From the NCBI GenBank assembly GCA_965204725.1, contig OZ242005.1:96001-160000 (forward strand): a stretch of 64,000 nt of DNA. The letters run 5' to 3'. How positions within the stretch are numbered: the stretch's first letter is position 1; each line of letters starts with the position of its first letter. A program made the translations under genes and the position numbers. The notes under the pieces were generated by a model. That model was not told where the DNA came from. It ran no database searches and was given only the letters and a program-made list of their open reading frames with translations. Positions 14,915 through 18,782 of the stretch are shown piece after piece. Source of the stretch: Candidatus Latescibacterota bacterium. Its GTDB lineage: Bacteria > Latescibacterota > UBA2968 > UBA8231.

Positions 14915-15103
14915 TCAGCCTTTCAATAAGATGCTTACAAGCAAGCCGACCAGCACGACAAACGTTCCGATTTGAATGCCAATAAGCCAATCGAGGCGCC
15001 GGTTGATGGCGGCGAATCCTCGCTGCATGTCCTCTCGCAGCGCGGCAAGGTCCTCTCGTTGGCGAGTCTCGATCCGGTCCAAGCGACGCTCAATGGAGTC
15101 TTG
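14915..15103 (-). pseudogene. 3' half of a second coiled-coil/TM paralog, interrupted by the 3.6-kb insertion
   Basis: QDSIERRLDRIETRQRED...ILLKG aligns with 14499-14861; its 5' half lies at 18710-18782. Confidence 0.85.
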
Positions 15104-15267
15104 ACCCACAAAACAAGGAGCATCGCAAAAAAACCATCGCGGCGTTCCGGCAACTCGACAGGGATGGCGTCATTGACTTGCACCACGAGGGAGGCGCAAA
15201 GACGGGGCGTTGGCAGATATTCGCGCCGCCCAAATTCCGCGATGCCAATGCCGTTGAGCAAGCCTAA
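15100..15267 (+). pseudogene. Truncated winged-helix ORF (possible Rep C-terminus) cut by the left junction
   Basis: Frame reads LDPQNKEHRKKTIAAFRQLDRDGVIDLHHEGGAKTGRWQIFAPPKFRDANAVEQA*, a wHTH recognition helix plus wing pattern. An in-frame ATG-GGG sits at the other end of the element (18704-18709). Confidence 0.55.
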
Positions 15268-15271
15268 TCCA

Positions 15272-15337
15272 CGACAAGCGGCCCCCCATTACTCGACAAG
15301 CGGCCCCCCATTGTTCGACAAGCGGCCCCCCATTGTT
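15272..15337. repeat. Three contiguous 22-bp direct repeats (iteron-like)
   Basis: CGACAAGCGGCCCCCCATT(ACT/GTT) x3. Confidence 0.85.
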
Positions 15338-15410
15338 GACCGCAAAATCGCCGCAAGTGAACAGGTGACAGGAACTTACAGCGATTTTCGCTGACTCCCC
15401 CCCTTACAAC

Positions 15411-15488
15411 CCCTTACTGCCCCAGAGCAGTAAGGGTGGTAGGAAGGGCTATGCCCGGGCCGCTGACGCTGGCATAGCCCTTCCTACC
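15411..15488. repeat. Two adjacent perfect inverted repeats (10-bp and 18-bp stems)
   Basis: CCCTTACTGC-6-GCAGTAAGGG and GGTAGGAAGGGCTATGCC-15-GGCATAGCCCTTCCTACC. Confidence 0.85.
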
Positions 15489-15744
15489 CTCTATCCTTCT
15501 CCCAACGCTCACACGCGCAACACAGCGGCTAATCAGCGGTTTTTATCAGGGGGGCGGCGCGAAAGCCTCGCCAAGAGCGGCGAGTTTTTCGTACACTCTC
15601 TAAAAACCCGGACCGCGCGGTACTCGGCTTGCTCTTTTGCGGCGTGGGTGGACGAGCGGGCGGTACTTGGTCAATGACCCTCAGAACCGCTCAAAACGCT
15701 TAGGAGGCGTTACAGGGCGTTTAACGCGATGGAGGCAAAAAACG

Positions 15745-16461
15745 ATGCGTGGTAGGCCAATGAGGATGACGACGGCGCGGCTGAAAGCGATTGGGGAGCA
15801 TCTCGAGGAGGGCGACGACCTAATGGGCGCGTGCCACAAGGAGGGCGTAACGTTGTCCCTCTATAAGCGTGCCTACCGCAGGCTCAAGGCGAAGGACAAG
15901 GCGCAACGCAAGCCCACAGCACGGCTACGAGCGGCTTGGAAACAAACCCTTACGCCTATACGTGCGCGTATCGCGCCTACGCGAGGCGCAGGTAATCCGC
16001 GAGTGCGGACCGGCCCCAAGCAAGGCAAGCAAGGGCGCGAGGTCGTAGCCACAGCGGATAAGGTCCTTGAGGTTTTACAGGGCTTGACCTACGGCTATAC
16101 GTTGGCGGTGTCGTGCTCGATGGCAGGCTTGGCCGTTGGCACGTTCAAAAGCCGCAGATATGCTCTCCAGCGGATTGCGCCCGAACACTTGACGGACTGG
16201 GAACGCTTGACGCTCATGGCCTACGAGGCTTGCACGGAGGCGATCTATTCAGAGGAACGCCCCGACAACCCGCTCCAGCGCGTGGAGCGAGCCGTCCGAC
16301 ACTTCGAGGAGCGAGAGTGGCTTAACGGCCGTATCCTCAAATTCACGGAGCGGCAGTGGGGGCGCAACGATGGCTTACGCGCAGGGATGGCCGCGAACAA
16401 GGCGCGGATGCGTTCCGCGCTTTGGCAAGCGGGCGAGCACGAGCAGGCTCGCGGCGTATAG
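15745..16461 (+). CDS. Basic protein with two HTH units resembling phage small-terminase-type HTH
   Basis: ATG 15745 after GGAGG; 'GRP..MT......I...LEEG.....AC...GVT...Y' and a second unit 'VL.GL..GYTL...C..AGL..GTF'. Confidence 0.55.
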   Translation: MRGRPMRMTTARLKAIGEHLEEGDDLMGACHKEGVTLSLYKRAYRRLKAKDKAQRKPTARLRAAWKQTLTPIRARIAPTRGAGNPRVRTGPKQGKQGREVVATADKVLEVLQGLTYGYTLAVSCSMAGLAVGTFKSRRYALQRIAPEHLTDWERLTLMAYEACTEAIYSEERPDNPLQRVERAVRHFEEREWLNGRILKFTERQWGRNDGLRAGMAANKARMRSALWQAGEHEQARGV

Positions 16462-16495
16462 CCGTTATTCTAAGCAAGAGGGATAGGAGGTTGCT

Positions 16496-16885
16496 ATGGG
16501 CAAGATTACGACGGCGGTTTCAATGTGCTTGTCGCTGGCGTTGTATTGGCATTATTCGGCGGCGTTGGCAGAGGTCGAGGGAGAGCGAGACAAGGCGTTG
16601 GCGCACGTGGCAACGGTGCAGGCTCAGTTGACAGCGGCTATTGAGGAGCGAGACGAGCACAAGGCGATGAGGGACAGTGCAGGGGCGTCGGCGTGGCGCG
16701 AGGTGGTTCGGGCCGATGAGTTGCGGCAGGTGCTAAAGCAGATGCTGGAGGATAGGTGGCTATCCGCACAACGGGCCGCTCAGTTGTGCAGCGGTTGGAA
16801 CTGTGGTAAGCTGCGGGTGGAGGCTGAATTGTGGAAAGGTCGTTTTGAGGATTTTAACTATCGACGGCGCATTTTTTTTGATTAA
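16496..16885 (+). CDS. Small protein with N-terminal TM helix and coiled coil (Rz/i-spanin-like architecture)
   Basis: GGAGG RBS; hydrophobic N-terminus then coiled coil; two Cys near the C-terminus. Confidence 0.5.
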   Translation: MGKITTAVSMCLSLALYWHYSAALAEVEGERDKALAHVATVQAQLTAAIEERDEHKAMRDSAGASAWREVVRADELRQVLKQMLEDRWLSAQRAAQLCSGWNCGKLRVEAELWKGRFEDFNYRRRIFFD

Positions 16886-17166
16886 AAGTCATTATTGATA
16901 AAACGGCATAATTATCGGCTGTTTTTCCATCGACGATCCTCGATCTACCGCGAATCGGCCCTTTTTCGGCATAATTATCAAGTTTTTGTGGTAAGCCAGC
17001 GGCGTTGCGGCTTGTGAACCTACTCTGCGGCTCCCTATATTGCCCGGCGCCGCGGCAACGCCCTGCTTGGAGCAAGGAAAGGCTAAGGTATGGTGCTCGG
17101 TTAGGAACGTGTTTATGTTGTGGTTCTATCGTATCTCAATAATCTTACACAAAAAGGAGTGTTGCG

Positions 17167-18411
17167 ATGAAATCGCTATTGGGATTTTTGGCGTGTCTGT
17201 TGGTGTTGGTGGCCGGTTGCGGAGAGGATACGAAGCGGTCAGTGGGGCCGTCAGCGGCGAAGGTGGCAAGTTCGACGCCTGAAACGGTGTGGACGGGTCT
17301 GAAGGCCGATGGCAAGTACACTACCGCAGGTTCGCCACTTGCGGCGTTTATAATGGCGGCTGGCGCGGGCGATCTGGCGGCGGTCAAGTTGTTTGTACAG
17401 GCGGAGGTCGATAAAGAGGGGCAAGCTATTGTCCACCTAGCGGGTATTGGTCGGTCACGGACTGCCCTTCATGCGGCGGCTCGTGGCGGTCATCGCGCAG
17501 TGGTTACGTACCTTCTCGGTCAGAGTGCGAGCGTCAGCAGTACGGACGGGAATGGGGACACGCCGCTACATGCGGCGGTTGAGGCAGGAAATCTTTTGAT
17601 GGTGCGGGAGCTTGTCGGTCAAGGGGCGAGTGTCGATGCTAAGAACACAGCAAGCGAGACGCCGTTGCATTTCGCGGTGACCCTAGGGCACTTGCTGATT
17701 GTGAAGTATCTGGAAGGGCAAGGAGCCGATCTTACGATCATCTCCACTGACGGCTTGACGCCCTGGGCGTTGGCGAAACTTTTTGGTAGTACGGCGATAG
17801 TGACGTTCTTGGATTCGACGACGGCGCGGGCTTTTGTTGATTCGGCTGGCGCGGGCAACTTAGAAGTTGTCAAGTCATTGGTAGCGGCGGGTATGCCGGT
17901 TGAGACTAAGGTCGAATACGATGGCGGGCGCGGTCCTAATTTTAATCCAAGCTGGACGGCACTGCTTAGGGCGGCGGGGAAGGGTCATCTGGCGGTGGTT
18001 GAGTATCTGATCGAGCAGGAGGCGGATGTGGATGCGGCGACCGCGATCTTCATAAACGATTTTCCTCTTAGTTTGTATTATGGCGAGACGGCTCTGTACT
18101 TGGCTGCGGGTGCTGGTCATGCGGCGGTGGTGAAGGTGTTGTTGGCAGCGGGTGCGACGGTGGATGCTAGGAACTATTATGCCTATACGCCTTTGCACCG
18201 GGCGGCGTTGTTTGGTCATCTGGCTATCGTCCAGTATCTGATTAGTTACGGGGCGGATGTGAATGCTGTGGCCGGCGTCAACGGTTCGGTTCGTTACTTG
18301 GCGGGGAGATGCGCCGAGAGGATTGATGCGGATCTATTTCCCGAAAAAATTGCCCGTTGCCGGTCGGTGGTGGCTTATTTAGACTTGCTGCCCGATGACG
18401 CTGACGAGTAG
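17167..18411 (+). CDS. Ankyrin-repeat lipoprotein
   Basis: AAGGAG RBS; lipobox LVAGC; about 8 ankyrin repeats (TALHAAARGGH, TPLHAAVEAGN, TPLHFAVTLGH, TPLHRAALFGH). Confidence 0.92.
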   Translation: MKSLLGFLACLLVLVAGCGEDTKRSVGPSAAKVASSTPETVWTGLKADGKYTTAGSPLAAFIMAAGAGDLAAVKLFVQAEVDKEGQAIVHLAGIGRSRTALHAAARGGHRAVVTYLLGQSASVSSTDGNGDTPLHAAVEAGNLLMVRELVGQGASVDAKNTASETPLHFAVTLGHLLIVKYLEGQGADLTIISTDGLTPWALAKLFGSTAIVTFLDSTTARAFVDSAGAGNLEVVKSLVAAGMPVETKVEYDGGRGPNFNPSWTALLRAAGKGHLAVVEYLIEQEADVDAATAIFINDFPLSLYYGETALYLAAGAGHAAVVKVLLAAGATVDARNYYAYTPLHRAALFGHLAIVQYLISYGADVNAVAGVNGSVRYLAGRCAERIDADLFPEKIARCRSVVAYLDLLPDDADE

Positions 18412-18475
18412 GTTAGTCTGTCTTATTCGTTGGTAGGTTCGTAGCGGCCGTAGCGACCGCAGCGAATAGCTTGAC

Positions 18476-18509
18476 GCCCCGTAGCCCATACAGTGGCTAC
18501 GGGGCTTTT
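18476..18509 (+). terminator. Rho-independent terminator after the ankyrin gene
   Basis: GCCCCGTAGCC-8-GGCTACGGGGC followed by TTTT. Confidence 0.75.
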
Positions 18510-18709
18510 CTCTGCCGCTTGACCGCCCCTAACGCACGGAACGATATTGAGCAATCCTTGTAAGGTGAACCACGTCGCGGCTGAACCACTGGCAACGTAA
18601 ACCGGGCGCGGCAAGTGAAGGAGCGGCGTTGGTTGGGCCGATTGCGTAAGCGCGGCCACCGGGCCGGTTTTCCCGGTTAGAGCGGCCAACGCCGCTTTTT
18701 TTTATGGGG

Positions 18710-18782
18710 CTTGCCGCTTGAATAGCTCGGCAACGACGCCGGGCAGCGGATCGGGTTTTAGTTCAGGAGGGGAGGTCGTCAT
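18710..18782 (-). pseudogene. 5' half of the interrupted coiled-coil/TM paralog
   Basis: MTTSPPELKPDPLPGVVAELFKRQ; 18713-18795 is nearly identical to 14792-14874, including the RBS. Confidence 0.85.

Follow-up and report, generated by a model that had tools for sequence, protein, structure and literature searches.

Positions 15101 to 18712 (plus strand) of the DNA analyzed here are occupied by a 3,612-bp insert that replaces two adenines of a host gene. The DNA, referred to below as the window, is a 64,000-nucleotide stretch of the genome of a Candidatus Latescibacterota bacterium (contig OZ242005.1 of assembly GCA_965204725.1, positions 96,001 to 160,000). The results support a discrete, strain-specific insertion of replicon-like DNA without a recombinase gene of its own. 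The insert is probably plasmid-derived DNA that was taken up by a one-off nonhomologous recombination and that is now an immobile chromosomal relic. The original prediction had described an integrase-less element whose excision would mend two genes, one of the host and one of its own; what remains of this framing is a plasmid-derived insertion by which one member of a tandem paralog pair is inactivated.

The interrupted gene and its empty allele

The interrupted gene belongs to a pair of tandem minus-strand copies, the product of which is a coiled coil with a C-terminal membrane helix. The first copy (paralog 1, positions 14499 to 14870), listed as an open reading frame (ORF) of 123 amino acids, is intact, and its only matches in Pfam and PHROG were weak ones to coiled-coil, XhlA, and holin-like families, all below the cutoffs. 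The second copy (paralog 2) is in two pieces on the minus strand, a C-terminal part at 14915 to 15100 and an N-terminal part with the upstream region at 18713 to 18782, the latter matching the beginning of paralog 1 at 96% identity. With a repeat finder, paralog 1 matched both flanks of the insert, the right flank from 18713 over 83 nucleotides (96% identity) and the left flank up to 15100 over 74 nucleotides (84% identity), and the two matches came within 2 nucleotides of each other in paralog 1. When the flanks were fused in silico, an intact ORF of 85 amino acids was obtained. Furthermore, the closest relative in the genus (genome G145) has one unbroken gene at the syntenic place, with the same neighbors and with the insert absent. 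The claims that a host gene is split and that deletion restores its frame were thus borne out.

In order to compare the window with independent data, Logan contigs of four public runs (X1, X3, X4, and X5) were aligned with positions 14400 to 19400. An uninterrupted allele was present in run X5, a sponge metagenome from another study than X1 or X3, in which one contig is identical to the window over 14845 to 15100 and continues into 18713, running from the C at 15100 through AA to the G at 18713 and skipping 3,612 bases. The empty site therefore reads CAAG, with a leucine codon on the coding strand; paralog 1 has the same codon (AAG), and G145 has GAG, which is also leucine. Because the empty allele is CAAG, the insert comprises 15101 to 18712; it brought the TT of both junctions with it, and the AA of the host disappeared. 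As had been noted, both ends show CTTG (15100 to 15103 and 18710 to 18713). This tetranucleotide is not a target-site duplication, nor is it a core common to the recombining partners, which have the outer C and G alone in common, and in silico a CTTG in place of CAAG would encode glutamine at a conserved hydrophobic position of the coiled coil. A single crossover on a CTTG core, as originally proposed, is contradicted by the CAAG of the empty site, the loss of the host AA, and the insert TT at both junctions. Nor does the insert have the identical core (CAAG when empty versus CTTG at the junctions) or the integrase gene of an element bounded by attL and attR.

A 42-nucleotide stretch 3' of each copy of the coiled-coil gene (14449 to 14490 and 14863 to 14904) is repeated at 88% identity, and the same stretch flanks the single G145 gene on both sides. 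Thus, the tandemly duplicated unit includes an intergenic piece.

Both junctions of the filled site were recovered in independent contigs. The left junction is crossed by a contig of X1, the likely source run (14845 to 16917, 2,073 nucleotides), and the right junction by an X3 contig from a different study (18634 to 18970, 337 nucleotides), each with zero mismatches. Pieces of orf1, a gene of the left half of the insert, were also found in X3, and the sponge metagenomes X4 and X5, which belong to a third study, gave no cover across 15235 to 16400. Contig depth in X1 was 115 over the left part of the insert compared to 110.9 and 104.4 in the flanking contigs, and this even depth inside and outside gives no sign of extra copies of the insert. 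The genome of the strain (G000; 5.43 Mb in two contigs, C1 and C2) contains no second copy of 15100 to 16410. An assembly chimera or misjoin was considered, since the right half of the insert is made of repeated modules, which break short-read contigs. However, with both junctions spanned without a mismatch by independent contigs, even depth, and a genome in two contigs, an assembly artifact is excluded for practical purposes, and a chimera is extremely improbable.

The truncated initiator-like gene and the origin-like region

The left end of the insert lies inside a gene. Positions 15100 to 15267 (plus strand) hold a frame of 55 codons plus a stop, which lacks a start codon as long as the element is integrated. 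In a search restricted to longer proteins, this frame was 82% identical over its full length to the last 55 residues of a 524-amino-acid protein, designated P0002, which is encoded on an 11.4-kb contig, and by this homology it represents the C-terminal winged-helix part of a putative initiator-like (Rep-like) gene. Whole-genome searches found homologues of P0002 in four genomes of the same genus and family: G138 (461 amino acids, on a 61.7-kb contig, C3), G146 (∼500 amino acids, with one internal stop), G137 (528 amino acids), and G167 (truncated), the last three being chromosomal. The remnant aligns with the C termini of all four. Upstream of the LDP at which the insert starts, the homologues carry a conserved ...LTE(L/M)IG, and because they extend upstream of LDP, the ORF is a remnant of a gene that was cut in the middle of a helix-turn-helix (HTH).

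Judged by its homologues, the remnant is the tail of a protein of ∼460 to 530 amino acids, and the gene of the element is truncated rather than repaired. The 57-amino-acid winged-helix ORF that circularization was predicted to create corresponds to the C-terminal tail of this ∼500-amino-acid family. The glycine codon that the right end would supply does fit the glycine of the LTE(L/M)IG motif, which is a 1-in-16 coincidence; the 10 nucleotides of the right end also follow the terminator of an RNA-like module at two other loci, where they then enter unrelated sequence. A search of G000 with P0002 gave a single match, the remnant itself, and no other initiator copy. With only 55 of ∼460 to 530 initiator codons, the insert is a unit without an intact initiator gene.

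Three iteron-like direct repeats with a 22-bp period (15272 to 15334) begin 5 nucleotides after the stop codon of the remnant, and an inverted repeat with 31-nucleotide arms that are 81% complementary (15425 to 15501) lies 3' of them as a further part of the origin-like region. The order of gene and then repeats was the same at all four loci read (the window, G138:C3, G146, and G137), each of which has three or four direct repeats at or just after the stop codon of the initiator-like gene. The period is 22 bp in three of these loci (the window, G146, and G137), and a pyrimidine-rich hairpin 3' of the repeats is common to the window and G146. These features, together with the ankyrin lipoprotein gene described below, agree with the cargo that had been predicted, as does the finding that no ORF of 15101 to 18712 matched a recombinase family in Pfam, NCBIfam, or PHROG.

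Iteron-controlled plasmid replicons, such as those of R6K pi, pPS10 RepA, and F RepE, have winged-helix initiators beside direct repeats of ∼22 bp. The family described here is similar in that a large gene with a predicted winged-helix end is followed by three or four repeats with a 22-bp period and then by a hairpin-rich stretch, and in that one homologue is on an extrachromosomal-size contig bearing ParA. It differs in that no family match to named initiators was obtained, the fold resembles that of pi only weakly (Z score of 5.1), and the window retains 55 codons only, in a region that is chromosomal. The G138 contig encodes ParA and Cas proteins (Cas_GSU0053 and Cas3) along with the initiator-like gene and its repeats and looks like a plasmid. 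The G167 copy adjoins phage terminase, protease, and portal genes, and the G137 copy adjoins a Toprim/zinc-ribbon primase. Positions 22000 to 41999 of the G138 contig also hold several coiled-coil/membrane-helix genes of the family of the interrupted gene, each after a small ribbon-helix-helix-like ORF.

A family profile recovered 62 clusters from 5.8 billion proteins, none of which has a Pfam domain or a name. Members are typically 370 to 660 amino acids long, and several of those listed are on contigs of ∼4 to 5.4 kb. This family with its adjoining iterons, which has no database name and is often found on contigs of ∼4 to 5 kb, is a candidate small-plasmid backbone for sponge symbionts that are uncultivated and without genetic tools. 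A pattern scan of JGI metagenome contigs and GTDB contigs gave no relatives of P0002.

The remainder of the left half consists of two genes. The product of orf1 (15745 to 16461, plus strand, with its ATG at 15745) is a near-orphan protein of 238 amino acids with two HTH-like segments and matched no Pfam or NCBIfam family. The sole family signal was a match of the N-terminal HTH to the small terminase family phrog_1482 (E value, 1.4e-4; 39 residues). Two very large protein libraries yielded one 97% identical copy, which is on another contig in a public assembly, one 85% identical fragment, and one relative at 34%. None of the 167 other genomes of the phylum had a match beyond an E value of ∼1e-4, and JGI metagenome contigs and IMG/VR contained no relatives. 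A single-sequence structure model (pLDDT, 49.6) was too poor for a structure search. The protein also had a weak match to an ORF of contig C2 (E value, 3.8e-4), which was not reproduced by tblastn. That contig (51,736 bp; GC content, 63%) is a phage genome of ∼34.9 kb assembled ∼1.5 times, with the genes of 6662 to 16957 recurring at 41580 to 51734; it encodes a terminase, a portal protein, a 2,460-amino-acid protein, and methyltransferases. orf2 (16496 to 16885, plus strand) encodes 129 amino acids with an N-terminal hydrophobic segment and a coiled coil. It is present in a single copy in the genome, had no family match in Pfam, PHROG, or NCBIfam, and is without relatives.

Joining of the insert and alternative explanations

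The donor is likely to have been a small plasmid-like (or phage-plasmid-like) replicon of sponge symbionts, on which the initiator gene, iterons, orf1, possibly orf2, an ankyrin cassette, and the RNA-like module would have followed one another in this order. One breakpoint would have fallen in the initiator gene and the other 9 nucleotides past the terminator of the RNA module, and the DNA would have entered the second copy of the tandem coiled-coil gene in the lineage of this strain. Joining might have proceeded by end joining at the level of microhomology or by a template switch, with the host AA removed and the TT of the insert left at both junctions. Afterwards the insert would have persisted as a relic that disables one of two paralogous genes; it is taken to be passive because it has no intact initiator, no recombinase, and, in this genome, no helper replicon. 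A one-off nonhomologous capture is favored because neither the insert nor the genome yielded a suitable enzyme and the initiator is not found elsewhere in the genome. In particular, no resolvase-type serine recombinase and no Ku were found in G000. A copy-choice event, in which a nascent host strand would jump to the plasmid and return where its new 3' end resembled the same host site, would yield TT at both junctions. Both plasmid breakpoints lie in a ...GGGCTTG context, which such a return at a host-like 3' end would explain.

Integrated plasmid remnants share several properties with the insert: a truncated replication gene, an orphan origin, the absence of a recombinase, a single strain-specific copy, and chromosomal depth. 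Three further genomes have chromosomal, partly broken copies of the initiator-like gene, namely G137, G146 (with an internal stop), and G167 (where it is truncated). The ends of the insert, which are near-palindromic and have the same dinucleotide on both sides, are more ordered than would be expected of such remnants.

A number of observations weigh against a capture of plasmid DNA by random joining. The donor plasmid itself was not seen. The ends of the insert are complementary at 9 of 13 positions, a value reached by 0.13% of random pairs at fixed register, and this complementarity and the TT beside C and G at both ends represent more order than random break-and-join predicts. Contiguous microhomology is 1 nucleotide per junction, which is weak for a template switch. 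An 8-bp match exists between the joined ends and the host site when the latter is read on the opposite strand, although in the wrong orientation for a crossover and possibly by chance. In addition, the same 10 nucleotides follow the terminator in two other copies of the RNA module, which then diverge, so that the right breakpoint is in recurring sequence and could mark a recombination site. The initiator-like family had no match in Pfam, NCBIfam, or PHROG, and P0002 had none in PLSDB or INPHARED. We read the initiator function of the family from its context and from a weak fold match (all Z scores below 8). An AlphaFold model of P0002 built from a seven-row alignment was confident to moderate at residues 256 to 516 alone (pLDDT, 55 to 86), where two helix/strand units are predicted. 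With VIA-align, residues 390 to 515 of this model matched winged-helix structures at Z scores of 5 to 7, and the R6K pi initiator-iteron complex (2nra) aligned over 198 residues at a Z score of 5.1, both below the level of 8; Foldseek gave no match at an E value of ≤0.001. In a protein atlas, P0002 produced only low-score leads, among them a cluster of RctB-type initiators at 0.88, under the 0.9 level.

The order at the ends would be accounted for if the insert were an integrated circular satellite replicon of ∼3.6 kb, with an origin, an initiator supplied by a helper, and a recombinase acting in trans at the near-palindromic site formed by its joined ends. Joining of the ends would make an 11-2-11 near-palindrome centered on TT. 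The presence of the iteron-like origin, the 97% identical orf1 on another public contig, the recovery of the insert in a run of a second study, and the identical 10 nucleotides in which three copies of the RNA module end are also consistent with such an element. The inverted arms that had been predicted to bracket a circle junction are present (9/13), but the junction was found in none of the contigs of the four runs; contigs lose rare forms, so rare circles are left undecided by them. Likewise, X1 and X3 contigs contained neither circle nor excision joints, a result that is limited to contigs and is silent on rare forms. The depth inside the insert equals that outside (115 versus 110.9 and 104.4), and the genome encodes no helper initiator, results that also argue against the mini-replicon of the original prediction. 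No serine recombinase domain is encoded in the genome either. The AA of the empty site and the TT of the insert provide no shared core, and the resemblance of the host site to the joined ends holds only if the orientation is reversed with respect to that observed; a crossover at this 8-bp match would invert the insert. At the left end, a conserved domain is broken off within a helix. Moreover, the 10 nucleotides after the RNA terminator continue into other sequence at two loci, so that a joined-end site need never have existed. An integrated satellite therefore seems unlikely. For the reversible switch of the original prediction, the contigs gave evidence neither for nor against, and a stranded relic is the likelier reading.

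More specifically, a minimal satellite of ∼3.6 kb with an origin but neither an initiator nor a recombinase gene might move via an 11-2-11 joined-end site, integrate at opposite-strand lookalikes in the host, and write its central dinucleotide into both junctions by a single-strand or copy-choice process. We regard this possibility as speculative and quite improbable. The strain-specific structured RNA at the right end may take part in such movement. If true, a minimal satellite would also spread ankyrin and leucine-rich-repeat (LRR) host-interaction cassettes among sponge symbionts. Phage satellites of the PICI-like kind have an integrase, a repressor module, capsid-remodeling genes, and an att duplication. 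The insert resembles them in its small size, the weak small-terminase-type HTH in orf1, and the location of the G167 homologue beside phage genes but has none of those four features, and the terminase-like match covers 39 residues. That match to phrog_1482 was the sole basis for the prediction of a phage satellite, which was not sustained.

A nonautonomous DDE transposon, mobilized by a transposase encoded elsewhere, would be bounded by terminal inverted repeats and would have duplicated a few bases of its target, and the insert does have imperfect terminal inverted repeats (9/13) and an identical TT, or CTTG, at both ends. However, the target was AA and not TT, so nothing was duplicated. The insert is a single copy whose left 1.3 kb occurs nowhere else in the genome and whose orf1 is missing from all 167 other genomes of the phylum. 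Its left terminus is in the coding remnant and its right terminus in the T-run of the terminator, so that their match is in part A/T low complexity. A DDE transposon is thus a highly improbable source.

Rolling-circle transfer was also considered. IS91 inserts at 5'-CTTG or 5'-GTTC without duplicating its target (PMC13181058). One-ended transfer by an IS91-like (HUH) enzyme of a CTTG-bounded plasmid segment into a CTTG target would agree with the absence of a duplication, with the ...GGGCTTG at both plasmid breakpoints, and with a host CTTG on the other strand. Compared with the IS91 family, the insert is alike in the CTTG at its junctions and in the lack of a target duplication but has neither an HUH transposase nor oriIS/terIS ends, and its tetranucleotides stand in the wrong strand relation. 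Since the host and the insert have their CTTG on opposite strands, transfer would give the reverse orientation, and no subterminal hairpins of the ori/ter type were identified at the ends. The sole Y1 match in G000 sits inside a 1,217-amino-acid frame; a search of G000 for Y2 HUH transposases (PF04986) gave no match, but neither did any of 14 control genomes, so that the latter search was uninformative. The probability of an IS91-like transfer is very small.

Integrase-less elements of the CTX-phi type (IMEX) borrow the Xer recombinases of the host. The insert is likewise a small replicon-derived element without its own recombinase but differs in that its target is a protein-coding gene and not dif and in that the insert and the empty site have no core in common. 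Although no search for dif was made, no 11-6-11 site resembling it was seen.

Several more specific ideas were rejected. Misoriented integration by a serine recombinase and joining with a 4-nucleotide (gyrase-like) stagger would each, without mismatch repair, leave AA on one side of the insert and TT on the other, whereas TT was observed at both. A 10-mer in the right end of an IS110-family element of the window also spans the joined ends of the insert, but it occurs 16 times in the genome compared to ∼17 expected, which is consistent with chance. This IS110-family element (53745 to 54968; Transposase_20 match) has a 97% identical copy at C1:2014327-2015549, and a broken one lies near C1:4.481 Mb. 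An integron origin was dismissed since the order of the GTT.../...AAC stem of the RNA module is opposite to that of attC and since the score of the recombinase nearby places it with XerC/D and not with IntI. A guide RNA was discounted since the 8-nucleotide complement of the variable part of the RNA module to the right junction was not matched in the other copies. The form of the junctions, in which a host dinucleotide is replaced, an insert dinucleotide stands on both sides, and the ends are near-palindromic, is cleanly explained by no standard mechanism.

Modules of the right half and their copies in the genome

The left half of the insert (15100 to 16410) is unique in the genome, and from 16411 on the insert is a mosaic of modules that are repeated elsewhere in it, including a conserved gene-end/terminator piece. 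A promoter-bearing 5' module of 206 nucleotides (16888 to 17093, plus strand), which contains a promoter-like site at 17012 to 17041, is shared with other eukaryotic-like-protein cassettes of the genome. It is 97% identical to C1:3471152-3471356 and 83 to 85% identical to two further places. In the related arrangement at C1:3.471 Mb, orf2 is missing, and the equivalents of 16466 and 16888 are 26 nucleotides apart. The module is followed by a gene for an ankyrin-repeat lipoprotein of 414 amino acids (17167 to 18411, plus strand; Pfam Ank E value, 1.8e-49), which has an 80% identical paralog at C1:2558437-2559663 as well as many weaker ones, and by a terminator-like hairpin at 18476 to 18505. 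No tRNA is near the insert, the sole tRNA of the window being far off.

Ankyrin genes borne by phages of sponge symbionts have been described as "ankyphages" (bioRxiv 10.1101/608950). The insert is similar in its probable derivation from a mobile replicon that bears an ankyrin-repeat gene in a sponge-associated bacterium and different in that its carrier appears to be plasmid-like and truncated and its ankyrin cassette has an 80% identical chromosomal paralog. The insert provides direct evidence that eukaryotic-like-protein cassettes (ankyrin and LRR) move as modules between replicons and the chromosome.

The right end is formed by an RNA-like module of ∼190 nucleotides (18519 to 18703, plus strand), which consists of a promoter-like site (18519 to 18548), a structured core, and a T8 terminator (18679 to 18698). 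Five copies are present in the genome (the window; locus L009, 5739 to 5931; locus L010, 8602 to 8718 and 9389 to 9480; and locus L011, 5837 to 6031), located 3' of ankyrin or LRR lipoprotein genes. When the five were aligned, a variable stretch with indels was followed by an invariant three-stem core of ∼75 nucleotides and a T-run. None of the 30 other genomes of the genus contained the module. No Rfam family was assigned, a scan of 14000 to 20000 giving one subthreshold match, and the fold energy was unremarkable (z = −1.9).

Two further loci with the RNA module are also strain-specific insertions relative to genomes G140 and G141. At the first (L010 6967 to 9883, C1:3470966-3473882), 2.9 kb in G000 corresponds to 68 to 79 bp in G140 and G141. 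This insert contains a 56-nucleotide remnant of an orf1-like 3' end, the 206-nucleotide promoter module (97%), an LRR lipoprotein gene, two RNA modules, and a low-complexity ORF of 216 amino acids, and its boundaries are not resolvable to the base. The second, between mutL and a XerC/D-like gene (L009 4998 to 6811, C1:1686997-1688810), measures 1.8 kb compared to 151 to 313 bp in G141 and G140. It is filled by two coiled-coil/membrane-helix genes, an ankyrin fragment, and the RNA module and is a variable hotspot beside a recombinase gene. The XerC/D-like gene itself is part of conserved chromosomal synteny in G140, G141, and G145. A sequence of ∼48 nucleotides at L010 6979 to 7027 has ∼20 occurrences in G145 at 90 to 98% identity and resembles a REP- or MITE-like dispersed repeat of the genus.

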